Origin: Gaiellales bacterium
Lineage (GTDB): Bacteria > Actinomycetota > Thermoleophilia > Gaiellales > F1-60-MAGs149
Assembly: GCA_046598415.1 (NCBI GenBank)
Contig: JBKJIG010000031.1
Location: 84,975-108,974 of the forward strand
Length of the DNA stretch: 24,000 nucleotides
Direction of reading: 5' to 3'
How positions within the stretch are numbered: the stretch's first letter is position 1; each line of letters starts with the position of its first letter. Below, piece after piece: positions 4,983-22,769 of the stretch. The notes beneath the pieces were generated by a model, which searched no databases, was not told the DNA's origin, and was given only the letters and a program-made list of their open reading frames with translations. The translations under genes were made by a program, and so were the position numbers.

Positions 4983-6731
4983 GACCGGATCCGCCGCATT
5001 CTCCTGCTCGACACCCAGCCGCCGAGTGGCCGGCAGGGTGAACACGAGCTCCGTGCCGTCGGCCGACGACTCCACCGCCAGGCTGCCGCCCGCGAACGCG
5101 ACGCGCTCGCGCATGCCGATCAGGCCGAAGCCGGCGTGCGTCTCGACCGGGTCGAAGCCCGTTCCGTCGTCCCGGATGGCGATGGTCAGCAGGTCGTCGT
5201 GCTCCGCCATGTCGATCTGGATGCGTGCCGCTTCGGCGTGCCGGACGGCGTTCGTCAGGGCCTCCTGCACCAGCCGGTAGACCGCGAGCTCGGTCGCGGG
5301 CTCGAGCCGCTCGGTCGAGCGCCCGGCCTCGAACGCCAGGTCGGCGTTGACGGAGATGTCGACGGTGGCCCGCCCCTTCGCCCGTTCTGCGAGCGCCTCC
5401 ACCGCCGGCACCACGCCGAGGGCGTCGAGGGCGGCGGGACGCAGGTCGTTGATGATCGCGCGCAGGTCGCGGATGGTGGAGTCGATCTGCGTGACGGCGT
5501 CGTCGAGCATCGCCGAGACGGCCAGCGGGTCGGTCACCCGCCGCGCGCTCGCCAGGCCGATCTTGAGCGCGGCGAGCTCCTGGAGGGTGTCGTCGTGCAG
5601 CTCCCGCGCCCAGCGCCCCCGCTCGGCCTCCGCCGCCTCGATGCTCCGCCGCAGACCCAGCTGGACGACGTTCTGCGCGGTCGCCACGGCCGTCGCGGCG
5701 CTCGCGGCGAAGGCATCCATGAGCCGTTCGTCCTCGGCCGAGAACCCCGGACCGGCGCTGAGTCGGTCGAACGCCCCGAGCACGCCCAGGGCGCGGCCGT
5801 GGAACAGCAGCGGGACGAGCAGTCCCGTCGTCGCCCCGAGACGTTCGGCGAGACCGAATCGCAGCCGCGTCTTGACGTCCGAGAGCCGTTCGGCGCTTCG
5901 CGTGCGCAGTACCGATCCCGTCGCCGACCCCTCGATCGGCACGCGCTGGCCGACCATCTCCGGGTCGACCGCGCCGGCCACCGCCGTCACGACGAGCTCG
6001 TCGCCGTCCTGCAGCAGCAGCACCATGCTCTCTGCCTCGACCAGCGCCCGGCCGCGTTTGACGATCAGCTCGAGCACCCGTTCGAGCCGCGTCTCGCCGC
6101 CGATGGCGCGGGCGATGTCGGTGGTCGTCTCGAGCGCCCGGACGGTTCGTTCGAGCGCGTCACGGCGCGTCTGCTCCGCCTGGTACAGCCGGGCGTTGTC
6201 GATCGCCCTCGCAGCCCACGCCGCGAGCACGACGATCGCCGTCTCGTCCTGCTCGTCGAACTCGCCGGTCTCCTTCTCGGTCAGGTAGAGGTTGCCCCAC
6301 GCCCGGCCCCGGACGATCACGGGGACGCCGAGGAACGTCGACATCGGCGGATGGCCGAGGGGGAAGCCGTACGACCGGGGATGCGCGCCGACGTCTGCCA
6401 GCCGCAGGGGACGCGGCTCGTCGATCAGGTAGCCGAGGATGCCGCGACCGCGGGGCAACTCGCCGATCCGCAGCTGCATCTCGGCGTCGATGCCGCTGGT
6501 CACGAACCGCTCCAGCGACCGCCGGTCGGGTGCCATCACGCCCACTGCCGCGTACCGCGCGCCGGTGAGCTCGCGCGCGGCGGCGAGCACCTTGCCGAGG
6601 ACGACCTCGAGGTCGAGCTCGGAGACGACGGACTGCCCGATGTCGAGCAGCAGCCGCAGTCGCCGCCCGTCGAGTCCCTGCAAGGACGGTGCAGGGCTCG
6701 CGCCAGCCGGGACCTGATCGTCGAAAGCCAT
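4950..6731 (-). CDS. DosS/DevS/DosT-like sensor histidine kinase (GAF-GAF-HisKA_3-HATPase_c)
   Basis: Starts MAFDDQV at 6731. GAF-A carries YGFPLGHPPMSTFLGVPVIVRGRAWGNLYLTEKETGEFDEQDE...NARLYQ, closely matching the heme-pocket region of M. tuberculosis DevS as I recall it ([32 protein letters not shown]). The H-box is WARELHDDTLQEL and the ATPase region is RDDGTGFD...GFGLIGMRERV. Confidence 0.9.
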   Translation of the reverse strand: MAFDDQVPAGASPAPSLQGLDGRRLRLLLDIGQSVVSELDLEVVLGKVLAAARELTGARYAAVGVMAPDRRSLERFVTSGIDAEMQLRIGELPRGRGILGYLIDEPRPLRLADVGAHPRSYGFPLGHPPMSTFLGVPVIVRGRAWGNLYLTEKETGEFDEQDETAIVVLAAWAARAIDNARLYQAEQTRRDALERTVRALETTTDIARAIGGETRLERVLELIVKRGRALVEAESMVLLLQDGDELVVTAVAGAVDPEMVGQRVPIEGSATGSVLRTRSAERLSDVKTRLRFGLAERLGATTGLLVPLLFHGRALGVLGAFDRLSAGPGFSAEDERLMDAFAASAATAVATAQNVVQLGLRRSIEAAEAERGRWARELHDDTLQELAALKIGLASARRVTDPLAVSAMLDDAVTQIDSTIRDLRAIINDLRPAALDALGVVPAVEALAERAKGRATVDISVNADLAFEAGRSTERLEPATELAVYRLVQEALTNAVRHAEAARIQIDMAEHDDLLTIAIRDDGTGFDPVETHAGFGLIGMRERVAFAGGSLAVESSADGTELVFTLPATRRLGVEQENAADPVSAPADVADDV

Positions 6732-6806
6732 GCTGCAGCTGCGACGATACCCCACCGGACGGCGGCGCGCACCGGCAGCCGCGATCTCTATCCGGCGGCG
6801 GCCCGC

Positions 6807-6821
6807 TGCGGGTTTCCCGCG
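6807..6821. promoter_or_regulatory. Palindromic operator-like site TGCGGGTTTCCCGCG
   Basis: Lies in a divergent intergenic region. Its centre is 83 nt upstream of the sensor-kinase start (6731) and 104 nt upstream of the DUF4389 GTG (6918). Confidence 0.65.
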
Positions 6822-6917
6822 GCCGGGCACGCGCAGCCTCCGGATGCGCCCCCGCCCCGGAACGGCCACCATGGTGCCGATGCGGCGATGCCGCGTCAAC
6901 GTTGATGGGAGTGAGAC

Positions 6918-8459
6918 GTGAGCACGGTGGAGAACACGGCCCCCAGGGAGGGCGTGCGGGTCGGCCGTGTCCTGCTGCTGGTATTCGGCGGGCTGCTGAT
7001 GCTGGTCTCGTTCGGCCTCCTCGCAGGGGGCGGCGTGCTCGGCTGGGCGTACGGCACGCAACGCGATGCCGACGGATACTTCACGACGTCCACCGAGCGT
7101 CTCCGGTCACCGGCCTTCGCGATCACGTCGCAGAAGATCGATCTCGGCTCCGCCCCGGACGACTGGGCCTTCGGCGACAGCCGGTTCGGCACGGTCCGCC
7201 TGCGCGTCGCCGGATCCGAGGGCGCCCCGGTCTTCGTCGGCATCGGCCGGGAGACCGACGTCGAGCGCTATCTGGACGGCGTTGCCCAGGACGAGATCGT
7301 CCACGCCGACTTCTCCGGGCCGGATCTGGGCGACGTCGATGTGCGGTTCCGGCGCCGGACCGGGACCCGGACGCCGGCGCCGCCGGCGGACCAGCGCTTC
7401 TGGGTCGCGTCGGCCGGGGGCGCAGGGACGCAGACGCTGGACTGGGATGTGCGGTCGGGCGCGTGGACGGCCGTGGTCATGAACGCCAATGCCGGCCGCG
7501 GCGTCGACGTCGACGCCGCTGTCGGCGCCAAGGCCGACTGGCTCCTGCCCGTGCTGATCGGCCTGCTGGTCGGCGGCGGTCTGCTGCTCGCCATCTCGCT
7601 CACGATGGTGGTCGTCGGCGCCACGGGACTGCGGCATCCGACGCCCGCTGCCGCGGCCGGAGCTGGGCCGACGGCTCGGCCGCTGCCGGCGTCCGGAGCC
7701 TGGACCGCCGACGCGCATGCCCGCGTCTACCCGCTGCGCCTCGACGGGACGCTGGACGACGACGTGAGCCGGTGGCTCTGGCTCGTGAAGTGGCTGCTCG
7801 CGATCCCGCACTTCATCGTGCTGTGGTTCCTGTGGATCGCGTTCGCCGTCGTCAGCTTCATCGCGTTCCTCGCGATCCTCTTCACCGGCCGCTATCCGCG
7901 CGGGCTGTTCGACTTCAACGCCGGGGTGCTGCGGTGGACGTGGCGGGTCGGCTTCTACGCGTACAGCGCCCTCGGCACCGACCGCTACCCGCCGTTCACA
8001 CTCGAGGACGTGCCCGACTACCCGGCGCGCCTTCAGATCGACTACCCGGAGCGGCTGTCGCGTGGCCTGGTGCTCGTCAAGTGGTGGCTGCTGGCCATCC
8101 CGCAGTACCTCATCGTCGGCCTGTTCGGCAGCGGCATCTGGTGGAGCGCCGGCTGGTGGGGTGGCGACCACCACGCCTCCGGGCTCGTCCAGGGAAACGC
8201 GGGCGGAGGGCTGATCGGGATACTGGTCCTGATCGCCGGCATCTGGCTCCTGTTCGCCGGCCACTATCCGCGCGACATCTTCCGCTTCGTGATGGGCCTG
8301 AACCGCTGGGTGTACCGCGTGATCGCCTACGCGACGCTGATGCGCGACGAGTATCCGCCGTTCCACCTCGACGCGGGCGGCCGCGATCCTGGCACTCCAC
8401 CTCTGGCACCGACCCCGGAATCTCCGGCCGAGCAGCCGCCGGAGACGGCGGACGCATAG
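6918..8459 (+). CDS. DUF4389-family integral membrane protein with an N-terminal extracytoplasmic domain
   Basis: GTG start preceded by GGGAGTGAG. The C-terminal half contains two DUF4389-like repeats: [72 protein letters not shown] and [16 protein letters not shown]...[38 protein letters not shown]. Confidence 0.85.
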
Positions 8460-8460
8460 G

Positions 8461-8489
8461 TCCGTCCTGCGGAGTTTCCGCAGGACGGA
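8461..8489. terminator. Perfect 13-bp stem / 3-nt loop hairpin TCCGTCCTGCGGA-GTT-TCCGCAGGACGGA. Its core (8468-8482, TGCGGAGTTTCCGCA) is a variant of the operator-like palindrome.
   Basis: Begins 2 nt after the DUF4389 stop. Its centre is 65 nt upstream of the DHOD-like ATG (8540). No U-tract follows. Confidence 0.5.
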
Positions 8490-8539: not shown

Positions 8540-9565
8540 ATGACCGCCTCGCACGCCGACTCGCCGGTCGATCTGACGACCTCGTACCTCGGCCTGGCGC
8601 TGCGCAGCCCGATCGTGGCATCGCCCTCGCCGCTGACGGGGACGCTCGATGGCATCCGCCGGCTGGCGCAGGCCGGAGCCGGCGCGATCGTCTTGCCGTC
8701 GGTGTTCGAGGAGCAGGTGTGGCGCTCCTCCGAGCGACTTCTGGCCGGAAACGACGGCGGCATCGGCCGCCTCGACCGCGTCAGCTCGTACCCGCCGGAC
8801 GCCACCGTCGCCCTCGACGATCCGTCCGCTGCGCTCGGGCTGATCCGGGCAGCCGTGAACGCGGTCGACATCCCCATCGTCGCGAGCCTCAACGGCGGCG
8901 GCAGCGGCGGCTGGCCCGTGTACGCGCACGCGCTGCAGCAGGCCGGAGCGGTGGCGATCGAGCTGAACATCTACGACATCGCCGCCGACATCGGCTCGTC
9001 GGCGGCCACGGTCGAGGATCACTACATCGAGATCCTCGCAAGCGTCAAGGCGGTGGTGACCATTCCCGTCGCGGTCAAGCTCCCGCCGTGGTTCAGCTCC
9101 GTCGGTGCGATCGCAGCCCGGCTCGCCGGCGCGGGCGCCGACGGCCTGGTCCTGTTCAACCGGTTCCTGCAGCGGGACATCGACCCCGAGCGGCTCGCGG
9201 TCACCTCCGGCATGCACCTGTCGAGCTCGCACGAGTCGACGCTCCCGATGACGTGGATCGCCCTCCTCCGGGGCCGCGTCGGCGTATCGCTGGCCGCGAC
9301 CACGGGCGTCGAGGGGCCCGCCGATGTCGCGAGGTTCCTGCTCGCCGGCGCCGACGTCGTGATGACCGCCTCCGCCGTGTTGCGACACGGCCCCGAGTAC
9401 GTCAGCGAGCTGACAGACGGCCTCGTCGCTTGGATGCGCCGCAAGCAGTTCACCACCCTCAGCGAGGTGCGCGGGCTGCTGAGCGAGGCCCTCGGCGCGG
9501 ACGCCGCGTCCCACCGGGCCGGCTACGTCGACGTGCTCCAGGCCGGACGCAAGCAGTATGGCTGA
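8540..9565 (+). CDS. Dihydroorotate dehydrogenase-like (class 1 DHOD/DHPD-like TIM-barrel) flavoprotein
   Basis: Begins [34 protein letters not shown]. Also contains [34 protein letters not shown] and [29 protein letters not shown], the DHOD-like barrel pattern. It is the only real part of the 6689..9565 ORF. Confidence 0.85.
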
Positions 9566-11981
9566 GCCCGCGCTCGCCCCGGACGAGCTCGCCGCGATCG
9601 ATGCGTGGTGGCGCGCTGCGAACTACCTCAGCGCCGGCCAGATCTACCTGATGGCGAACCCGCTGCTGCGCGAGCCGCTGCGGCCGGAGCACGTCAAGCC
9701 GCGCCTGCTCGGCCACTGGGGGACGACGCCGGGGCTGAACCTGCTCTACGCGCACCTGAACCGCATCATCGTCGCGCACGACGCCGACCTCCTGTTCATC
9801 GCCGGCCCCGGCCACGGCGGCCCGGCGATGTGCGCGAGCACGTGGCTCGAGGGGTCCTACACGGAGCACTGGCCGACCGTCACCGCGGACGGCGCCGGGA
9901 TGCAGAAGCTGTTCCGCCAGTTCTCGTTCCCGGGCGGCGTTCCGAGCCACGTCGCGCCCGAAACGCCCGGCTCGATCCACGAGGGTGGCGAGCTCGGCTA
10001 CGCGCTCGCGCACGCCTACGGCGCGGCCCTCGACAATCCCGATCTCGTGGTGGCCTGCGTGATCGGCGACGGTGAGGCCGAGACGGGGCCGCTCGCGGCC
10101 AGCTGGCACGCGAACAAGTTCCTGAACCCGGCGACCGACGGCGCGGTCCTGCCGATCCTGCACCTAAACGGCTGGAAGATCGCGAACCCGACCGTGCTCG
10201 CGCGGATCGGCGAGGCGGAGCTGACGCAGCTCCTGTCCGGCTACGGACATCGTCCGCTGATCGTCTCGGGCGACGATCCCGAGCGCGTGCACCAGGCGTT
10301 GGCGGCGGCGCTGGACGACGCCTACGCCGATATCCGCCGCATCCAGCACGAGGCCCGTGCGGGCGGCGCCGTGCGGCGTCCGCCCTGGCCGATGATCGTC
10401 CTCGAGACGCCGAAGGGATGGACCGGCCCGCAGACGGTCGACGGCCTCAAGGTCGAGGGCACCTGGCGCTCGCACCAGGTGCCGCTGTCCGCGACCCGCA
10501 CCAACCCGGAGCACCTGGCGGCCCTCGAGCGATGGCTGCGCAGCTACCGGCCGGAGGAGCTGTTCGATGCCGACGGCCGCCCGGCGGAGACGATCCGCGC
10601 CCTGGCACCGAACCGGTCGAAGCGGATGGGATCGAGCCCGCACGCCAACGGCGGCAAGCTGCTGCGCGACCTCACGCTGCCCGAGTTCCGCGCGTTCGGT
10701 GTCGACGTTCCCCGGCCCGGGGCGACGACGGCCGAGGCGACGCGCGTGCTCGGCCGGTACCTGGCCGAGGTGATGCGACTGAACGCCGGCGCCCGCAACT
10801 TCCGCATCGTCGGCCCCGACGAGACGGCGTCCAACCGCCTGGGCGACGTCTTCGAGGTGACGGGTCGCGCCTGGATGGGCGAGCGCACGGCCGACGACGA
10901 GGACCTCGCGGCCGACGGCCGGGTCATGGAGATCCTCTCGGAGCACGTCTGCCAGGGTTGGCTCGAGGGCTACCTGCTGACGGGCCGGCACGGCCTGTTC
11001 TCGTGCTACGAGGCGTTCGTCCACATCGTCGACTCGATGTTCAACCAGCACGCGAAGTGGATCAAGACCGCGCACGGCATCCCGTGGCGGCGGCCCGTCG
11101 CGTCGCTCAACTACCTGCTCACGTCGCACGTCTGGCGCCAGGACCACAACGGTTTCTCGCACCAGGACCCCGGCTTCATCGACCACGTCATGAACAAGCG
11201 GGCCGAGGTGATCCGCGTGTACCTGCCGCCCGACGCCAACACGCTGCTGTCGGTGGGCGACCACTGCCTGCGCAGCCGCGACTACGTGAACGTCATCGTC
11301 GCGGGCAAGCAGCCGGCGCCGAACTGGCTGACCGTCGAGGAGGCCGCCGACCACTGCACGCGCGGCCTCGGCATCTGGGACTGGGCGACGAACGAGGGCG
11401 AGGAGGGGCCTGACGTGGTGATGGCCTGCGCCGGCGACGTCCCGACGCTCGAGACCCTGGCGGCGGTGAGCATGCTGCGCGACCGGCTCCCGCACCTGCG
11501 CGTGCGGGTCGTGAACGTGGTCGACCTGATGCGCCTCCAGCCCGCCGCCGAGCACCCGCACGGCCTTCCCGACGTCGAGTTCGACGCCATCTTCACGCCG
11601 GACCGGCCCGTGATCTTCGCGTACCACGGCTACCCGTGGCTGATCCACCGTCTGACGTACCGGCGCACGAACCACCGCAACATCCACGTGCGCGGCTACC
11701 GCGAGGAGGGCACGACCACGACGCCGTTCGACATGGTGATGCTGAACGACCTCGACCGGTTCCACCTCGTCGCCGACGTGATCGACCGGGTGCCGTCGCT
11801 CGGCCCGCCTGCGGCCGACGTCCGGCAGGACATGGTCGACGCGCGCAACCGCGCGCGGCGCCATACCCGCGAGCACGGCGTCGACACCCCGGAGGTCACC
11901 GAGTGGACCTGGGACGTTCCGGGCGGACCGCACGATCCGCCACCAGGATCGTCTCCCGCTCGGCGTCCGACCGGAACCTGA
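9558..11981 (+). CDS. xfp: Phosphoketolase (xylulose-5-phosphate/fructose-6-phosphate phosphoketolase)
   Basis: 806 aa. Contains [57 protein letters not shown] and [15 protein letters not shown], canonical XFP signatures. Its ATG overlaps the upstream gene by 8 nt (ATGGCTGA). Confidence 0.95.
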
Positions 11982-12043
11982 CGGCCTCCGGGACGGCGCA
12001 GACCGGTTGCGTGATCGTCCGTAGGAAATGCCCCGTGCCGGAC

Positions 12044-12058
12044 TGCGGCAAAGCCGCA
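12044..12058. promoter_or_regulatory. Palindromic operator-like variant TGCGGCAAAGCCGCA
   Basis: Intergenic. Its centre is 92 nt upstream of the USP ATG at 12143. The flank CCGGACTGC is shared with the site at 16200. Confidence 0.55.
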
Positions 12059-12142
12059 CCTCACATCGCGTCGCCCGCGGATGGAGCAGCACCGGCGGCG
12101 ACGGATGATGCGTCCGTAGGCACTCACGGAAAGGAGAGGTCG

Positions 12143-13695: not shown

Positions 13696-13783
13696 TTCCA
13701 ACCTCCAGAGGTTCTGATCGCTGAACCTCTCGAGCGTTGCACCGCGCCGAGACCGGCGAATCGGCGACAGCCCGGTCCGGGCC

Positions 13784-13798
13784 TGCGGGAAACCCGCG
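13784..13798. promoter_or_regulatory. Palindromic operator-like site TGCGGGAAACCCGCG
   Basis: Intergenic. Its centre is 96 nt upstream of the USP start at 13695 and 5 nt past the oxidase subunit I stop. Confidence 0.6.
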
Positions 13799-13802
13799 CC
13801 GC

Positions 13803-15620
13803 CTACAACTGGATGAGCAGGCCGGCGACGAGCAGCAGCAGCGCCAGCAGCATCGCCCAGGCTCCCTGGCGGCGCGCGCCGAGCGCCACGGCGACGTAGC
13901 CGGCGAGGATGCCGAGGGGCGCCCACAGGAACGGGCTCTGCCAGAGGGACGGGATCGCGAGCGCCACGCCGCCGGCGGCGAGCAGCCCCGCCAGCACGTC
14001 ACGCGGCTCCTCGCGCGCGATCGTGTCAGTACGGGCGTCGTCGGGTGGCTTCGGGCCGAGCGCCCCGGACAACCACGTCACGCCCAGCGTCCGCGCGAGG
14101 TTGTACGCGAAGATCGCCTGGCCGATCACGATCAGCGCCACGAACGGCAGCGCCAGTTGGCTCATCGTCAGGTACTGGTCCGGCAGGACCGCGAACCGGC
14201 GCGGCGCGCCCTCGAGCCCCTGCCACATCCACGGGATCACCGACCCGTACCCGCCCACCACCGTCAGGGCCAGATGCCAGTCGGCGAGGCGCAGGGAGTG
14301 CCACGGTCTGCCAACGATGCCAGGCAGGAAGTAGTAGATGGCCCCGAAGATCACCATCCCGATGTGGATCAGCGCCATGTTGTGGAAGTGCCCGACGATC
14401 CACAGGGTGTTGTGGGCGACGACGTCGTACTGGATCGTCGCGAGCCCGACGCCCTGCAGGCCGGCCACCAGCCACGAGACCAGCGCCACCGACAGGAACC
14501 GGGCAGCCGGGCTCGACCAGTCGAAGGCCGATCGGTAGATGGTGAAGCCGAGCGAGAACAGCGAGATCGCGGACGGGATCGTCACCGCGTAGGTGAGCGG
14601 TTGCGTGAAGCTGTTGACCGACTGCTGGAAGCTCTCCGGGAAGTCGGTGTACATGTGATGCGCGCCGATGATCACGTTCGAGACGACGGCGATCGTCCAC
14701 GCGACGGCGATGATGTGGCCGGCCACCAGATCACGGCCGGCGAGCTTCGGGATGATGTGGTAGTAGACGGCGACGGCCGGGAACAGCAGCAGGTAGACGA
14801 CCGGGTGGCCGAACCACCAGAGCATCGTCTTCGCGAGCAGCGGGTCGACGGTCACGGACGGCTGGATGGCCTGGACGACCATCAGCACGAGCAGGATGGC
14901 GAGCGGCAGCGTCGCGACGATCATGTCGAGGGCGATCACGGCGAGCGGGATCGCGGCGTACGGCAGCGGCCGGTCGGTTGCGAAGCGCTTCGGCCGCAGG
15001 TAGCCGAACCCGAGCGAGCACAGCACCCGGTGCCCGAAGCCCGCGCCGGCGCGGGCGCCGAGCCCCGGCCCCGTCAGCACCGCGAGCAGCGCGAAACAGT
15101 ACGCGAAGATCGACAGGCCGACCGAGAGCACCGACAGCGCGAACAGCGCCGTCGTCGTCTCCGTCCACTGTCCGGTCGAGGAGAACGGCAGCGGGTAGAG
15201 GAACACCCACGAGCCGGCGAAGTGCTGCGCCAGCACCGTGATGACGATGCCGGCGACGCCGACCACCATCGTCCACCACGAGATGGACGCCCACCGGTAC
15301 CCCCAGCCGCGCAGCTCGAAGCCCGATTCCTGGAGGATCCAGTACGAGAGGCCCATCAGGCAGAACGCGGCCCAACCGACGAAGGTCGCCAAGCCGTGCG
15401 CCGTCATCAGCTCGTACCACACGGCGGGCGAGACGGTGATGACCTCGGCCTGGCTCTCGCGCAGCACGCCACCGAGCGACCCGCCGACCAGGAAGAACAG
15501 GGTCGAGGTCAGCACGTGGCGCAAGACCAGCGACTTGGCCCGGTCGCGGACGGCGGCGACGCTCAACTCGGCCTCGCCGGTCCGGCCGAGGTAGCCGGCC
15601 GGGATGCCGACGGCACTCAC
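13803..15620 (-). CDS. Heme-copper oxidase subunit I (cytochrome c/quinol oxidase; probably B-family, ba3-like) with a C-terminal two-helix extension
   Basis: Metal ligands are present: LMTAHG (low-spin heme His), WWFGHPVVY (CuB His plus helix-VI Tyr), GAHHMYT (CuB His pair) and VGHFHNM (heme His pair). The GTG start at 15620 overlaps the subunit II stop as GTGA. The 38 codons upstream in the ORF are not needed. Confidence 0.9.
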   Translation of the reverse strand: MSAVGIPAGYLGRTGEAELSVAAVRDRAKSLVLRHVLTSTLFFLVGGSLGGVLRESQAEVITVSPAVWYELMTAHGLATFVGWAAFCLMGLSYWILQESGFELRGWGYRWASISWWTMVVGVAGIVITVLAQHFAGSWVFLYPLPFSSTGQWTETTTALFALSVLSVGLSIFAYCFALLAVLTGPGLGARAGAGFGHRVLCSLGFGYLRPKRFATDRPLPYAAIPLAVIALDMIVATLPLAILLVLMVVQAIQPSVTVDPLLAKTMLWWFGHPVVYLLLFPAVAVYYHIIPKLAGRDLVAGHIIAVAWTIAVVSNVIIGAHHMYTDFPESFQQSVNSFTQPLTYAVTIPSAISLFSLGFTIYRSAFDWSSPAARFLSVALVSWLVAGLQGVGLATIQYDVVAHNTLWIVGHFHNMALIHIGMVIFGAIYYFLPGIVGRPWHSLRLADWHLALTVVGGYGSVIPWMWQGLEGAPRRFAVLPDQYLTMSQLALPFVALIVIGQAIFAYNLARTLGVTWLSGALGPKPPDDARTDTIAREEPRDVLAGLLAAGGVALAIPSLWQSPFLWAPLGILAGYVAVALGARRQGAWAMLLALLLLVAGLLIQL

Positions 15621-16141
15621 GGAACGACCTTGAAGCTGGTGACCATCGTGTGGTGCCCGATGCCGCAGTACTCGAAGCAGCGCACGGCGTAGACCCCCGG
15701 ACGCTGCAGCGTCAGCCGCAGCGTCGACGGCCACTGCGGCATCATCTGCGCCTGCGCGACGAAGGTGCCGGACGGGTCGTAGATGGCGAAGGCGTGGTTG
15801 ACGTCCTTGGCGGTCAGGCGGAACTCGACCTGCCGGCCCGCCTTGACGGTGGTGGTCGAGAACGTGAAGCCGTACTGCTGGGCGACGACATCGACGACCT
15901 GCTGATCGGCCCGCGCCTCAGCGTTCCACGGCGTCTCGGAGATGGTCGCCGCTGCCGACCCGACCAGCGCGATCATGACGACGACGAACCAGACGTTCTC
16001 ACGCCGCTTCCAGCGCGCGACGTTCATCGGCTTCGCGCGGGCCTTCGCACGGGTGGACAGGAAGATCATCGCGAACACGACGAGGCCCAGGACGACCAGC
16101 CCGAGGTAGATCAGATTGAAGACCACCATCGTCCGGTTCAT
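15617..16141 (-). CDS. Heme-copper oxidase subunit II (CuA domain)
   Basis: MNRTMVVFNLIYLGLVVLGLVVFAMIFL plus a second TM helix, then a cupredoxin domain ending in the CuA motif (H)AF...CFEYCGIGHHTM. An in-frame alternative ATG at 16189 overlaps the palindrome and is judged less likely. Confidence 0.85.
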   Translation of the reverse strand: MNRTMVVFNLIYLGLVVLGLVVFAMIFLSTRAKARAKPMNVARWKRRENVWFVVVMIALVGSAAATISETPWNAEARADQQVVDVVAQQYGFTFSTTTVKAGRQVEFRLTAKDVNHAFAIYDPSGTFVAQAQMMPQWPSTLRLTLQRPGVYAVRCFEYCGIGHHTMVTSFKVVP

Positions 16142-16230: not shown

Positions 16231-16662
16231 TCAGTTGAAGGTCTGGTCGCAGTTCTGAAAGGTGTTCTTCGCACCCGGGGCACCGATGCAGATGTCGTTG
16301 GTACCCGTGCCGCCGTCGAGCGTGTTCCTCGTCGCAGACTGGCCGCCGGCGACGATGCAGTCGTTGCCGGCGCCACCGTTGTAGCTCACGTTTCCCGTCT
16401 TGTTCACACCGATGATCAGCTCCGCCGCCGATGTCCCGGTGACGGTCGTGACGCCGGCGGCCATGACGATCTTGGCGGTCAGTGCCAGCGCCGCACACTC
16501 GCTCGGCGCCAGCTGGACCGGCGTCGCGGCCTGAGCACCGCTCTTGCCGGCACGTGTGACGGGCACCGTGTTACTGGCCGTGAAGCCGGTGACGGACGTG
16601 AGGATGGCCGCGAACACGAAGACGACGCCGGCGGTCCGCGCCAGTGTGCGCCGCGGCATCAT
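16231..16662 (-). CDS. Small secreted Cys-containing protein with an FTASNTVP post-signal motif and an RTX-like GGxGxD repeat; putative cognate substrate of the adjacent S26B signal peptidase
   Basis: MMPRRTLARTAGVVFVFAAILTSVTG-FTASNTVPVTRAG... Also contains GGAGNDCIV and GGTGTNDICI, and four Cys residues. Its ATG overlaps the peptidase stop as ATGA (16659-16662). Confidence 0.75.
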   Translation of the reverse strand: MMPRRTLARTAGVVFVFAAILTSVTGFTASNTVPVTRAGKSGAQAATPVQLAPSECAALALTAKIVMAAGVTTVTGTSAAELIIGVNKTGNVSYNGGAGNDCIVAGGQSATRNTLDGGTGTNDICIGAPGAKNTFQNCDQTFN

Positions 16663-18482
16663 CGGCCGACGTTCGCGTAGCTCGACGGTACCGCTTCCCG
16701 GTTGGTGCGCGCCCGCGCGGCGGGGCCGCGGCGCTCGATCACGTACACGTACAGGCGGCCGTCCTCGTCCACGGCATACGTCGCATCTCGGCCGCGGTGC
16801 TCCTCGAGGATCAGGTGCCCGTAGTGCTGGGCGAGCCGCGCCAGGCTGTGGAAGTCGGGCAGCTCGATCGTGATGCGGTTGTCGGGGTTGACCTCGTGCA
16901 CCGGTACGAGCAGGCTCCCGTACCGCTTCGAGATCAGGTCCGTCTGGCGGCGGGCGCGGATCGGCGGTCGGGCGATCGCGAGCACGACCATGCTGGCGAA
17001 GATGCACGCGATCAGGGCGAGACCCAGCAGGCGGAGCTTCATCACGTCGATGTGCAGCGCCGCCAGATTGACGCTGTTGGCGACCTGCTGGTCGAGGCTG
17101 CCGGCCTGCTCGGGCTGCAGGATCGCCGCGAGGGCGCTCGTCGCCGACGTCGGGTCGGCGCCGGCCGCCGAGGAGGCCGCGGGTGCGGCGAGCTTGACGA
17201 GCTGGTGGTTGAAAGTGAACGGCAGCACCGGCGCGAACGTCTGGTTGATCGGCTTGCCGTTGACGATGCCGGTGATGTTCACGACCGCCTGCAGGTCGAC
17301 CAGGTAGTCGGAGCCGACGGCGCCCGAGTCGGCGGAGAGCTGGTCGAAGAACGCTCGCGACTGCACGAGGTCAACGACGCCGGCGATGTTCGCGGTGTCA
17401 CCCTCGAACGGGACGACCTTCTGCAGCACGAAGCTGCGATGGAGCGACGTCGCTGCGGTGATGACGGTGTTGAGGGCGATCGTGCCCTTGATCTGGTGCG
17501 GCAGCCGGCTGTCGAAGCGGTAGCCGAACTTCACGTTGACATCCTTGAAGAGGTCGAGCAAAAGCGGGTCGCCGGTCTGCGCGAAGCCCGTCGGATAGGC
17601 GGGGTTCGGGGCGACCAGCTTACTCACGTACGTGAAGTCGCCGACCTGCCTGAACGCCCCGGGGGCCGGGGCGGTGCGCTGGGCGGGGACGAGGAATCCG
17701 ACGAGCGTGACGAGGAGCGCCAGCACCAACGCGCCCGCTAGCGGCGGCCACGCACGGTGCAGGTTGACGCCGTGCAGCATGAAGTCGCCCGGGGCGACCG
17801 GCCGCAGGTTGGATGGGGCCGGCCGCGCGGGCTTCGCGGCCTTCGGCGTGGCCGCGCGCGGCGGCGCCGGGTCCGGCGCGGAGCGCGCCGATGCGAGGCC
17901 ACGGAGCCCGAAGTCGGGCGCGCCAACGACGGGTTCGGCCTCGATCGGTCCCGGCTGGTCCGTGACGGGCAGCGCGGCCTGAGCCGGGGTCGACCGACGC
18001 CCGCGCCGACGGCGGCGCTGCTTCTCGGCCGTGCCGCCGAGCAGAAGGAACATGGCTGCGACCACCGCGAACAGCGAGGCGTGCAGCGGCGTGCTCAGCC
18101 AGCCGACCCAGCCGCCGACACGGGGCACGTGGAACCAGAGCCGGCCCGCGATTGCACTGGCCGGCACGGTGCCGGGGTCGACGAAGTCGTTGTTGTCGCC
18201 CTGGAGCGAGTACTGGCCGTCGTGCAGGGCGATGATCCGGTGCAGCACCGGCCGGTGCAGCACCGGGCTGTTGTACAGCACGGCGTCGCCGACCTTGTAC
18301 GGCGGCCCCGCGCGCATCACGGCGAGGTAGCCGGTGTGCAGCTTCGGAAGCATGCTGATGCCCTCGGTGGTCGCATACGAGGTCGAGCCGCCCATCTGGA
18401 TGGGCGCGAACAACAGCCACACGACCGCGAACACGCCGAGGCCGGCGACCCATCCGATGATTCCTGTCCTGTGCGAGCGCAT
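16659..18482 (-). CDS. Fusion protein: S26B (SipW/Sec11-type) signal peptidase I, then a Pro/Ala/Arg-rich linker, then a DUF5305-like two-TM module
   Basis: N-terminus: TM helix, then GISMLP (Ser), VLHRII (His) and QGDNNDFVD, the ER/archaeal-type SPase signature. After the linker comes a TM helix (WPPLAGALVLALLVTLVGFLV), about 230 aa of extracytoplasmic sequence, another TM helix (LRLLGLALIACIFASMVVLAIA), and a tail KRYGSLLVPVHEV...LPDFHSLARLAQHYGHLILEE...YAVDEDGRLYVYV that matches my recollection of DUF5305. An AGGAGAA Shine-Dalgarno lies 6 nt upstream of the ATG at 18482. Confidence 0.85.
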   Translation of the reverse strand: MRSHRTGIIGWVAGLGVFAVVWLLFAPIQMGGSTSYATTEGISMLPKLHTGYLAVMRAGPPYKVGDAVLYNSPVLHRPVLHRIIALHDGQYSLQGDNNDFVDPGTVPASAIAGRLWFHVPRVGGWVGWLSTPLHASLFAVVAAMFLLLGGTAEKQRRRRRGRRSTPAQAALPVTDQPGPIEAEPVVGAPDFGLRGLASARSAPDPAPPRAATPKAAKPARPAPSNLRPVAPGDFMLHGVNLHRAWPPLAGALVLALLVTLVGFLVPAQRTAPAPGAFRQVGDFTYVSKLVAPNPAYPTGFAQTGDPLLLDLFKDVNVKFGYRFDSRLPHQIKGTIALNTVITAATSLHRSFVLQKVVPFEGDTANIAGVVDLVQSRAFFDQLSADSGAVGSDYLVDLQAVVNITGIVNGKPINQTFAPVLPFTFNHQLVKLAAPAASSAAGADPTSATSALAAILQPEQAGSLDQQVANSVNLAALHIDVMKLRLLGLALIACIFASMVVLAIARPPIRARRQTDLISKRYGSLLVPVHEVNPDNRITIELPDFHSLARLAQHYGHLILEEHRGRDATYAVDEDGRLYVYVIERRGPAARARTNREAVPSSYANVGR

Positions 18483-18506
18483 CGTGCTTCTCCTACGTCG
18501 TTCGGT

Positions 18507-18539
18507 ACCGGGCGACACCACTGTGTAGTGCCGCCCGGT
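18507..18539 (-). other. Intercistronic stem-loop between the first secreted-protein gene and the signal-peptidase fusion gene
   Basis: ACCGGGCG-A-CAC / GTG-C-CGCCCGGT gives 8+3 bp with a 1x1 mismatch and a 9-nt loop. It lies between the stop at 18574 and the start at 18482. No U-tract follows. Confidence 0.4.
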
Positions 18540-18573
18540 GTCATTGGGGTCGACAATGCCGGCCGCCGCGGAC

Positions 18574-18993
18574 CTACTGCGCGGCGATCACCGTGAGGCT
18601 GGTCAGCTTGTCGGACGTCAGCTGTGGGCTCGCCGTCGCACAGGTGACGGTGTCACCCGTCGTGTTCGTCGTGCACGCGTAGTTCGTCGGGCCACCGGTG
18701 GTGAGTGCGGCCTGGACGACGACCTTGCCGTTGCTGGTGCTGGGAATGACCGGAGAGACGGTGAACGTCAGCGAGTCGATGTTCGCCGGCGTCGTCGAGT
18801 TGAGCGTGTAGTGGATGGCCGAGACCGTGTAACCGCTGACCGTACCCACGCCGCTGCCGGCGGTCGTGTTCGGGACGGTGTTGGAGGCGGTGAAGGCGTA
18901 GGCGCCGGTGCCGAGGATCGCCGCGATACCGATTGCGACGACCAGTCGGAGCGGCGTCCGGCTCGACTTGGAGCCGAGAGCGCGAGCAGACAT
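18574..18993 (-). CDS. Small secreted Thr/Ser/Asn-rich protein with an FTASNTVP post-signal motif; putative major substrate or structural subunit
   Basis: A GAAGGAGAA Shine-Dalgarno precedes the ATG at 18993. Sequence: MSARALGSKSSRTPLRLVVAIGIAAILGTGAYA-FTASNTVPNTTAGSGVGTVSGYTVSAIHYTLNSTTPANIDSLTFTVSP..., a beta-rich composition with two Cys. Confidence 0.8.
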   Translation of the reverse strand: MSARALGSKSSRTPLRLVVAIGIAAILGTGAYAFTASNTVPNTTAGSGVGTVSGYTVSAIHYTLNSTTPANIDSLTFTVSPVIPSTSNGKVVVQAALTTGGPTNYACTTNTTGDTVTCATASPQLTSDKLTSLTVIAAQ

Positions 18994-19162
18994 GTGTTCT
19001 CCTTCGTCGACCGTGACGGCTGCGCGAGGCGCGGTCCGGGTCACGAGGAGGTGGGAAGGCCTCCACCACTGTCATCGGAAGGCCCGCCAGAACCGCCTCC
19101 CCACCCTGGGCCGGCGTTCACCCCATACGGGGGAGGCCGAACGGCCTGGGTGGACCGAAGGT

Positions 19163-21665: not shown

Positions 21666-21811
21666 CAGGTTCCTTTGGATCGCAATTCAAGCACCTGGTG
21701 TCCAGGGTCAGACGGTCATTGACAGCTCAGCGTCGCGGATGAGTCTGGCAGGGTGCGGGCCCGAACACCCGATGCGTGCCATTGTTCTTATCTTTCGTAT
21801 TAGTGACATAT

Positions 21812-22597
21812 ATGCGAACGACCGCTGCTGCACGGGCCCACGCCGATCGGGTTACACTCGCCGCCACCATATGTACCCGGTCGATCCGCTCTCTCCCCCC
21901 GAGACCCGTCAGCCCACCTGCGATAGTCCGCCGCGGACGTCCCCCGCCAAGGAGCGTTGCCACGGGCAACACGCGCATTGATCCGCGGAACCGGTTCAAC
22001 CTGATCTCGCGCACGGGCCTCTACGACCCGCTGACGGCGCTGTCGTTCGGCCGGGCCGGACGGCGGATGCACCGCGAGCTGGTGCGCGCGGCCGGTATCG
22101 AGACGGGCGCCCAGGTGCTCGACGTCGCCTGCGGGCCGGGCCGCAACCTGCCGCTGCTGCTCGAGGCCGTCGGCCCCGGTGGCCGAGTCGTGGGCGTCGA
22201 CATCTCGCCGAGCATGCTGGCGCGAGCCCGCAGCCGCGCCGTCGACGCCGAGCTGCTTGAGGCCGACATCTCCGGCGGCCTGCCGTTCGGCGACGGGATG
22301 TTCGACGCCGTCGTGTCCTCGTTCGGACTGTCGTGCGTGCCGCGCATCTCGCCGGCGCTGGACGAGATCATGCGCGTGCTGCGCGCTGACGGCGTGATCG
22401 CGGTCGCCGACGCGAAGATGGTCAACTGGCACCCGCGCCCGCTCGGCGCCCTCGTCACCGCGGCCGTGTCGCCGTTCAACTCCTGGTACCCCGAACGCGA
22501 CCTGGCGGCGATGGTCGAGGCGCGCGGGATGGTCGTCCAGCGGCTGCCCACGTCGTCCGACGCGTTCGTGCTGTTCAAGGCCCTGCACCCGGGGTGA
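21812..22597 (+). CDS. Class I SAM-dependent methyltransferase (start codon unresolved)
   Basis: Motif I VLDVACGPGRN, plus VVGVDISPSMLARA, FDAVVSSFGL and LRADGVIAV. A family-like N-terminal segment RFNLISRTGLYDPLTALSFG (about 21989-22048) lies upstream of the first good ATG (22067). The ATG at 21812 is the nearest canonical in-frame start further upstream. Confidence 0.75.
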   Translation: MRTTAAARAHADRVTLAATICTRSIRSLPPRPVSPPAIVRRGRPPPRSVATGNTRIDPRNRFNLISRTGLYDPLTALSFGRAGRRMHRELVRAAGIETGAQVLDVACGPGRNLPLLLEAVGPGGRVVGVDISPSMLARARSRAVDAELLEADISGGLPFGDGMFDAVVSSFGLSCVPRISPALDEIMRVLRADGVIAVADAKMVNWHPRPLGALVTAAVSPFNSWYPERDLAAMVEARGMVVQRLPTSSDAFVLFKALHPG

Positions 22598-22769
22598 GGC
22601 AGATGCCCATCCAGCGCGGGTCGGCCGACGTCGCGCTGGCCGCATCCGCCGCCTCACCCCTTCCACGGTACGCCGCCCGTCCGTGACCTGAGGCGCACGT
22701 ATTCCCACCACGGCCGCGCGAGCCGCACCGGTCGCGCGATCCACGCGTCTCCCGCGCGCCTTTCATGTT

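Follow-up and report, generated by a model that had tools for sequence, protein, structure and literature searches.

A signal peptidase-DUF5305 fusion and its small secreted partners: a candidate fibre-maturation module of Gaiellales and other bacteria

In a 24,000-nucleotide (nt) stretch of DNA from a Gaiellales bacterium (GCA_046598415.1, contig JBKJIG010000031.1, positions 84,975-108,974 of the forward strand; the whole stretch, of ~70% G+C, is called the window below), three minus-strand genes, geneA, geneB and geneC, form an operon encoding the proteins A, B and C. At its heart is a conserved module: the single chain of B combines a signal peptidase of the Sec11/SipW type with a TafG-like (DUF5305) module, and B is paired with the small secreted protein A. 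We think it somewhat probable that A-B-C as a whole secretes and matures an extracellular protein fibre as a self-contained unit, one that is common in soil Actinomycetota and Chloroflexota, similar to the TasA, Tafi (Tat-fimbriae) and AbpX systems and built from a different subunit family, in which A would polymerise to give the fibre.

The peptidase-DUF5305 fusion and its tagged partners

Judged by its sequence, the N-terminal part of B is a clear but divergent homologue of the ER/archaeal-type (S26B) signal peptidases. It matches TIGR02228 (sigpep_I_arch) at E=1.1e-11, and a profile of 20 B homologues finds its best solved relatives in human SEC11A/C (E ~3e-10), with the SM(E/L)P, HR and GDNN...D motifs aligned; on the Pfam side, the peptidase region gives only a weak Peptidase_S24 match (E=0.042). 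The catalytic motifs comprise Ser43 in GISMLP, His81 in VLHRII, and Asp96 and Asp102 in GDNNDFVD, each of these four residues being retained by at least 90% of the 20 homologues. From hydropathy and the positive-inside rule, the catalytic domain (residues 27-132) is predicted to sit between two transmembrane (TM) segments, TM1 (8-26) and TM2 (133-150). The linker that follows, Arg-rich (KQRRRRRGRR) and then Pro/Ala-rich, carries 16 Lys and Arg residues in a 95-residue loop; its length varies from 38 to 95 residues among B homologues, and nothing in it is conserved in sequence beyond the poly-Arg stretch.

The remainder of B matches PF17231 (DUF5305) with E=1e-7 and a score of 32.1 bits, above the cut-off of 29; the alignment pairs residues 370-580 with profile positions 27-217 of 217, and a precomputed DUF5305 match is also present in many B homologues. 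The fusion of an S26B-type peptidase with DUF5305, which an initial annotation of this DNA had proposed, is thereby confirmed. The same annotation likened only the cytoplasmic tail to DUF5305; the tail is indeed matched, but the match extends further, into the extracellular domain and the fourth TM segment (TM4). It had also taken separate neighbouring genes for the usual state, which is the arrangement reported for archaea, whereas in these bacterial lineages fusion is the norm: both parts are present in 79 of 80 related loci (one genome per GTDB species was scanned, 481 relatives of B were found, and locus counts here and below refer to the best 80). The TM pattern and charge bias of the DUF5305 module agree with a predicted extracellular beta-domain flanked by two TM segments and followed by a cytoplasmic tail. 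In this predicted topology, the beta-rich domain of ~215 residues and the peptidase domain face outwards, the Arg/Pro-rich linker and the C-terminal ~100 residues are cytoplasmic, and the peptidase domain with its active site lies on the same outer face as the cleavage sites of A and C.

The geneA product is predicted to begin with a Sec-type signal peptide of 33 residues, whose -3/-1 positions read A-Y-A; its removal would leave a mature protein of 106 residues that starts with FTASNTVP (nt 18894-18871) and ends in ...TVIAAQ. Its two Cys residues (107 and 118) are conserved in at least 90% of family members. The family itself is both large and uniform. A word-index search found 851 relatives, of which the best 120 share 66-100% identity with A and are nearly all 125-140 residues long, and when 1.84 billion cluster representatives were searched exhaustively with a profile, 1,289 clusters (50% identity) were returned at E<=1e-3, the family as a whole keeping to 120-140 residues. 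Scans of A and of 99 A-family members against Pfam and NCBIfam gave no significant family match, and no PDB sequence was matched by the A profile at E<=10. In the Acidimicrobiales and Gaiellales loci, A is ~70% identical to the A of the window, compared with ~50% for the peptidase domain and ~37% for DUF5305: the substrate evolves more slowly than its peptidase. The most conserved block is formed by the first 22 mature residues, with a mean majority fraction of 0.70 vs 0.37-0.58 elsewhere. In an AlphaFold2 model built from a 99-sequence alignment, in which the signal helix is also modelled, residues 56-126 form a six-stranded beta core (block predicted local distance difference test, pLDDT, 75-94), and mature residues 37-52 have pLDDT <50 and are disordered in the monomer; an earlier model from a shallow alignment (pLDDT 58) was too poor and was not used.

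Several other identities were considered for A and set aside. A type IV pilin has its prepilin site, G|F(T/M)L(I/L)E, ahead of the hydrophobic helix, but the tag of A stands after the hydrophobic segment, and no conserved prepilin peptidase or ATPase is encoded nearby; for a sortase-assembled pilin, the C-terminus is not LPXTG, and no conserved sortase lies nearby. Lys-Asn isopeptide cross-linking, as in archaeal threads and C. perfringens BsaA, would need a Lys conserved across the family, and there is none, Lys90 being found in only 20%. One A homologue (P0145) carries the JGI label 'archaellin', which no result here backs, and in another (P0077) the C-terminal stretch …PATPRARPSPARRRRP… looks like the product of an assembly frameshift error.

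What joins A to C is a tag, FTASNTVP, which directly follows the hydrophobic signal segment in both proteins. The junction in A reads ...GTGAYA|FTASNTVPNTTAG (in a longer reading, ...LGTGAYA|FTASNTVPNTTAGSG), and that in C reads ...TSVTG|FTASNTVPVTRAG (longer, ...LTSVTG|FTASNTVPVTRAGKSG). A relaxed form of the motif has only two matches in all six frames of the window, those in A and C; shared exact 8-mers have an expectation of 6.6e-5, and none of 3000 shuffles reached a length of 8. The claim of the initial annotation that the peptidase gene is flanked by two secreted proteins with a common post-signal motif is confirmed. A hidden Markov model built on A residues 31-56 alone recognises the C N-terminus in 49 of 58 loci (E<0.01) and in 0 of 58 reversed controls, and the core common to A and C can be written (F)TA.N.VP.[ST].AG. 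In A of the Actinomycetota the junction AYA|FTA(S/A)NTVP is near-invariant, and in that of the Chloroflexota it takes the form (Y/V)G|FAA(A/S)N(T/G)VP. Across phyla, A, C and the fused forms described below all have residues at -1 and -3 that fit the signal peptidase I rule.

In C, residues 1-26 are the predicted signal peptide, and the mature N-terminus (nt 16584-16546) is that of the shorter junction above. Beyond the tag come a QLAP..C segment and then a Cys-rich C-terminal domain, with four Cys residues in all (56, 102, 125 and 138); at residues 76-130 there are GGxGxD repeats of a degenerate RTX-like kind. For C, nothing significant came out of the Pfam and NCBIfam scans. Six C orthologues from other loci match the PF00353 RTX calcium-binding repeats above the cut-off (E 1e-11 to 3e-22), and the C of the window has no match to PF00353 at E<=0.1; because the orthologues match and the window copy does not, we regard the latter, on its sequence, as a degenerate member of an RTX-bearing family. 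C-like sequence lies 3' of geneB in 58 of the 80 loci, as a separate gene in 41 and as an in-frame C-terminal fusion to B in 17. Such fused B-C chains also occur in metagenomes, where 50 B homologues of 500-886 residues were found, the named ones all called 'signal peptidase I': seven fusions are visible in the alignment among homologues of ~680-740 residues, and a quick motif scan placed the tag near the C-terminus in 8 of the 50. In the fusions a fifth TM segment precedes the tag, which is therefore predicted to lie on the outer face, and a small residue at -1 and a small or aliphatic one at -3 are kept before it. Rather than a second pilin-like subunit, C is a motif-bearing, Cys-rich protein with RTX repeats, often fused to the peptidase, and we see in it a candidate initiator, tip or anchor subunit, translationally coupled to geneB.

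The TasA (Peptidase_M73) similarity that had been suspected in A and C did not materialise in Pfam and NCBIfam scans, the 99 A-family members included, and the DUF1102 models likewise gave no significant match for A, C or these 99 proteins. Nor did SipW-cognate signal-peptide models match A or C at E<=1, the presence of TIGR04088 and TIGR04089 in the library being unchecked; a SipW-cognate family is not among the 25 most-matched of the 48 NCBIfam families matched by the 99 A-family members.

Conservation, expression and setting of the operon

Represented among the best 80 loci are Gaiellales, Acidimicrobiales, Solirubrobacterales, other Thermoleophilia and Chloroflexota (Dehalococcoidia, Anaerolineae and Chloroflexia); the closest (L001), in a Gaiellales metagenome-assembled genome, shares 73% identity over the best aligned B segment. 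Motif and peptidase, which the initial annotation had expected to travel together in other genomes, do so: phmmer detects a same-strand A-like open reading frame (ORF) directly 5' of geneB in 73 of the 80 loci. At the A position, three apparent exceptions encode a small secreted protein of divergent sequence, ...AAGGAA(F/Y)T..., and the remainder are at contig ends and have no upstream sequence. The A-B pair is thus universal in related loci that have upstream sequence. All-against-all clustering of the ORFs within 6 kb on each side found no further family in more than 13 of the 80 loci, and the composition of the module is A(n)-B(-C).

The number of A genes varies. Tandem, diverged A paralogues, two or three of them, stand 5' of the peptidase gene in Chloroflexota loci and in a few actinobacterial ones (Table 1), recalling the major and minor pilin sets of archaeal Tafi loci. 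On a 4.17-Mb contig (ERZ25039476 contig_1998), an A-B-C operon (L084 5441-8177) shows the same 4-nt overlap of geneB and geneC as the window, and an orphan A paralogue of 140 residues (P0074; L083 6001-6423) is found ~1.6 Mb away beside unrelated genes, which suggests that substrates can be processed in trans. In a locus on a 680-kb contig (L081), the gene after A (6425-8470) has a 681-residue product, a length typical of fused B-C, and next to it (8627-9691) is encoded a 354-residue protein with weak immunoglobulin (Ig)-like matches (IG_AIR9, SCAB-Ig); this protein is not conserved across loci and could be a lineage-specific adhesin or tip component.

Several features of the operon bear on expression. 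The geneA start is preceded, at 6-12 nt, by the Shine-Dalgarno sequence GAAGGAG (19005-18999), geneB has an AGGAG ribosome-binding site upstream of its ATG, and the geneB stop and geneC start overlap as ATGA (16662-16659). A consensus scan for promoters and terminators found nothing, as expected in 70% G+C DNA without T-tracts, and no sigma-70 match was seen in the region upstream of the operon; the hairpins were assessed by folding instead. The 98-nt spacer containing the A-B hairpin folds at -44 kcal/mol (z=-2.6), and the hairpin is kept in the closest locus. Among 58 related loci with A-B spacers of 25-300 nt, the median z against dinucleotide shuffles is -2.8, and 62% have z<-2. We consider this hairpin a candidate partial terminator or mRNA stabiliser that would set a high A:B ratio. 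Far stronger is the hairpin after geneC, for which the enclosing 69-nt stretch has a folding energy of -49.6 kcal/mol (z=-7.2); none of 200 shuffles folds equally well. The consensus terminator scan missed it because it has no T run. The tight operon coupling that had been noted, namely the ATGA overlap, the AGGAG-type sites and the A-B hairpin, is therefore upheld in each of its parts.

The NCBI gene calls in the protein collection have lengths identical to the products of geneA, geneB and geneC. On the 5' side the operon adjoins an amino-acid ATP-binding cassette (ABC) transporter (ATPase, permease and binding protein), and on the 3' side, cytochrome oxidase subunit II- and I-like genes. Elsewhere in the window, a 651-residue ORF on the plus strand (13737-15692) overlaps the cytochrome oxidase subunit I gene (13803-15734, minus strand) in antisense; the minus-strand product matches COX1 at E=7e-68, and the plus-strand ORF is therefore the usual high-G+C artefact. 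Two further minus-strand ORFs, at 10164-12092 (642 residues) and 21800-22744 (314 residues), match no Pfam family at E<=1e-5.

Table 1. Coordinates of the operon, its parts and related tandem-A loci (window positions unless a locus is named; aa, amino acids; UTR, untranslated region)
Feature	Position	Strand	Description
Operon upstream intergenic region	18994..19162	-	3' of ABC-transporter ATPase stop; presumed promoter and 5' UTR
geneA	18574..18993	-	ATG at 18993, stop at 18574; 139 aa; precursor of candidate major fibre subunit
A-B intercistronic hairpin	18539-18507	-	15 bp, G+C-rich
geneB	16659..18482	-	ATG at 18482, stop at 16659; 607-aa membrane protein, peptidase-DUF5305 fusion; four predicted TM segments
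S26B signal peptidase I domain	18042..18425	-	geneB residues 20-147; TIGR02228 and SEC11A/C matches
Arg-rich then Pro/Ala-rich linker	17745..18032	-	geneB residues 151-246; predicted cytoplasmic
DUF5305 (TafG-like) module	16662..17744	-	geneB TM3 247-265, extracellular 266-482, TM4 483-504, tail 505-607 (predicted)
geneC	16231..16662	-	ATG at 16662, stop at 16231; precursor, 143 aa; ATGA overlap with geneB
Operon terminator hairpin	16226-16188	-	18-bp perfect stem, no T-tract, 5 nt past geneC stop
Tandem-A locus L036	4516-5924
Tandem-A locus L051	2-1237
Tandem-A locus L070	4531-5934
Tandem-A locus L054	4168-5882
Tandem-A locus L047	887-2974
Tandem-A locus L005	4905-5930

A candidate fibre and the alternatives

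How might these parts work together? We posit that both precursors are cut by B, A after AYA and C after VTG, baring FTASNTVP as the N-terminus of both. Mature A, with its 106 residues, six-stranded beta core and one presumed disulfide, would then polymerise, its conserved N-terminal strand, disordered in the monomer, inserting into the next subunit by donor-strand complementation. The strand would also be present in C, there carried by a Cys-rich RTX mini beta-roll. Being made approximately 1:1 with the peptidase through ATGA coupling or outright fusion, C may provide the strand with which assembly begins, and in this way nucleate the fibre, cap it or anchor it at the peptidase, by analogy with what has been proposed for TapA and TafC, with the hairpin after geneA perhaps keeping A in excess over B and C. 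We count in favour of a fibre the type and predicted outward orientation of the peptidase, the A-B synteny, the shared tag, the precedents discussed below, the slow evolution of A, its conserved yet disordered mature N-terminus, the tandem and orphan A paralogues and the recurrence of the A-B hairpin, together with the RTX repeats of the C orthologues, which are in keeping with C as a non-pilin partner.

A number of points weigh on the other side. In sequence, profile and Foldseek comparisons A resembles none of TasA, AbpA, TafE, the threads, CanA and the chaperone-usher pilins. A Foldseek search of the PDB with the A model returned generic beta-barrels only, the best at E=0.07 (F1-ATPase N-terminal barrels), and no TasA, AbpA, TafE, thread or CanA chain, with Caf1 only at E=0.2; hhalign of the A family profile against TasA (its sequence verified as 8AUR/5OF1) gave a non-significant probability of 0.4%. 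The model itself is of moderate confidence only (overall pLDDT 72.7), seven residues ahead of a Pro would make for a short donor strand, and the 44.9 bits that B scores against TIGR02228 fall short of the curated cut-off of 51.85. C is moreover not essential to the module, because 22 of the 80 loci, mainly of the Solirubrobacterales type, have no detectable C-like sequence; 18 of these 22 carry the tag, in A genes only. Finally, the N-terminal tag could equally be an element recognised by the peptidase or by DUF5305.

That last thought, taken to its end, gives the main rival to a fibre, which we hold to be unlikely: a dedicated-peptidase export module in which A and C are monomeric secreted or surface proteins and (F)TA.N.VP..AG is a recognition or sorting tag on the P' side of the cleavage site, in a sortase- or exosortase-like manner. 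The position of the tag exactly at the predicted cleavage site, and its being the sole feature common to A and C, fit such a module well, as do the lack of pilin homology or a fold match for A and the loci that are missing C. A tag alone, however, leaves unexplained why the whole mature A should be more conserved than the enzyme, why its size should be so uniform, and why hairpins should be arranged to favour a large excess of A; furthermore, every characterised DUF5305-linked peptidase found in our literature search serves donor-strand fibres. We give little credence to a second alternative, in which the signals stay uncleaved and A and C remain anchored in the membrane, making up a coat on the cell surface or a stable complex in which B is scaffold or chaperone. 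The sub-threshold score of the peptidase would suit it, and so would the 17 loci in which C is physically part of B and the V-T-G site of C, which is less canonical than A-X-A. Yet the catalytic Ser, His and Asp are kept in at least 90% of homologues and align to SEC11, the -1 and -3 residues obey the signal peptidase I rule in A, C and the fused forms alike, and a tag that abuts the membrane could not fold into anything if left uncleaved.

It is also quite improbable, in our estimation, that A is a very divergent but true homologue of the TasA or Tafi (DUF1102) pilins, and the locus an ordinary member of their family. The operon logic and the accessory module are alike, and homology between AbpA and TasA is itself seen only by the most sensitive methods (PMC9245690). 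The sole local hhalign alignment, non-significant as given above, sets A residues 30-51 on TasA 22-43 and thereby superposes the two signal/mature junctions, A GAYAFTASNTVP... on TasA GGGTWAAFNDIK..., each with a Phe no more than two residues from the cleavage site. Mature A nonetheless has 106 residues against the 234 of TasA, under half, and Pfam, PDB-sequence, hhalign and Foldseek comparisons are all negative.

We return to a fibre assembled from A, of which a bolder and rather less probable version can be put forward: A would represent a structurally new class of donor-strand fibre unrelated in fold to TasA and Tafi, C on its own peptidase would be a self-processing polyprotein, and the peptidase-DUF5305 protein would be the assembly platform as well as the cleaving enzyme. 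Could nucleation then be fixed at the peptidase-DUF5305 complex, either by a C-terminal extension or by strict 1:1 coupling? And could the makers of such fibres be abundant uncultured soil lineages, the Gaiellales, Acidimicrobiales, Solirubrobacterales and Chloroflexota?

Comparison with known systems

Part of this picture is already known. Fusions of a signal peptidase with DUF5305 have been mentioned in passing, and DUF5305 has been linked to fibres, in papers of 2025-26: DUF5305 is TafG of the haloarchaeal Tat-fimbriae, whose neighbour, the peptidase TafD, is required for TafA processing and Tafi fibres, and the authors remark that some bacterial peptidases also contain DUF5305 (PMC11821415); in AbpX loci it is a probable signal-peptidase accessory subunit that is sometimes fused, for example in Anaerolinea thermophila (bioRxiv 10.64898/2026.01.04.697558). 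The fusion has been noted in A. thermophila E8MZY1, Actinoplanes lutulentus and Tepidiforma. In our literature searches, which included SipW/TasA in Actinobacteria and TIGR04088/9, we found no account of the A or C families, of the shared tag or of the B-C fusion, and no surface appendage of such a type for these lineages. Should A form fibres, several lineages that are dominant in soils and sediments but poorly cultured would have in this module their leading candidate for a matrix or pilus system. The fibre pathway of dedicated peptidase and DUF5305, known from archaea and Bacillota, would then also cover Actinomycetota and Chloroflexota, and would gain a new, very small subunit of 106 residues. 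The in-frame fusion of a peptidase with its substrate provides a testable handle on the role of DUF5305, and bears on how nucleation takes place at the membrane for donor-strand fibres made without chaperones (TasA, Tafi, AbpX). From the present data, models could be defined for the A and C families, which now have none in Pfam or NCBIfam.

The analogy with SipW-TasA and archaeal pili drawn in the initial annotation finds support in this literature (PMC11821415, PMC12337348, bioRxiv 10.64898/2026.01.04.697558). Like the present operon, tapA-sipW-tasA of Bacillus subtilis consists of three genes, for a major secreted subunit, a dedicated S26B peptidase and a low-abundance partner; an aromatic residue is found at the cleavage site in both, and in both the partner gene is coupled to the peptidase gene by a stop/start overlap (for tapA and sipW, PMC10151520). 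TapA, scarce like SipW, starts TasA filaments by donating its N-terminus (PMC10151520), the role that we propose for C. The two nevertheless differ in gene order, A-B-C here and tapA-sipW-tasA there, and in SipW being without DUF5305. TapA has an Ig-fold, whereas C is an RTX/Cys-rich mini-domain and in many genomes part of the peptidase chain. TasA homologues (PF12389) do occur in Actinobacteriota and Chloroflexota (PMC9245690), but A is not among them: it has no detectable similarity to TasA in sequence or fold and is under half its size.

Archaeal Tafi loci resemble ours in that genes for small secreted subunits stand next to coding sequence for a dedicated signal peptidase and for DUF5305. 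For Tafi the need for the peptidase has been shown experimentally (PMC11821415) and assembly by strand donation has been seen by cryo-electron microscopy (PMC12337348). Peptidase and DUF5305 are separate genes in these archaea, within loci of five to seven genes that include a regulator, a tip protein and an anchor; the haloarchaeal subunits, the pilins TafA, TafC and TafE, are Tat-exported, and DUF1102 proteins appear in the Sec-type versions of Thermococcales and Archaeoglobales, all of them pilins of families other than that of A. The locus described here is, by comparison, bacterial and of three genes, with Sec-type signals and an unannotated subunit family. AbpX loci, of the TasA superfamily, likewise combine a signal peptidase I with a DUF5305 accessory, for which fusion is already reported; the architecture of DUF5305 is the same, a beta-domain outside the cell, two TM segments and an alpha/beta domain in the cytoplasm, and calcium is involved in assembly (bioRxiv 10.64898/2026.01.04.697558). 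Unlike B, the AbpX peptidases are described as having ten TM segments, and the AbpX subunits cluster with TasA, which A does not.

Two more distant systems help to frame the comparison. In chaperone-usher pili (Fim, Pap, Caf1), as we propose for A and C, the N-terminal extension of a neighbour completes a beta-sandwich and an initiator gives the first strand, but the present system has no chaperone, usher or outer membrane, and Caf1 is matched only at the E value given above. The eukaryotic signal peptidase complex contains, in SEC11, the best solved relative of the catalytic domain, and similarly brings together a catalytic subunit and membrane-spanning accessory parts; it is a general-purpose enzyme of several polypeptides, unlike a substrate-dedicated fusion in a single chain. 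Whilst the A subunit family shows no match to the TasA superfamily in sequence, profile and Foldseek tests, the logic of the machinery around it is that of TasA, Tafi and AbpX.

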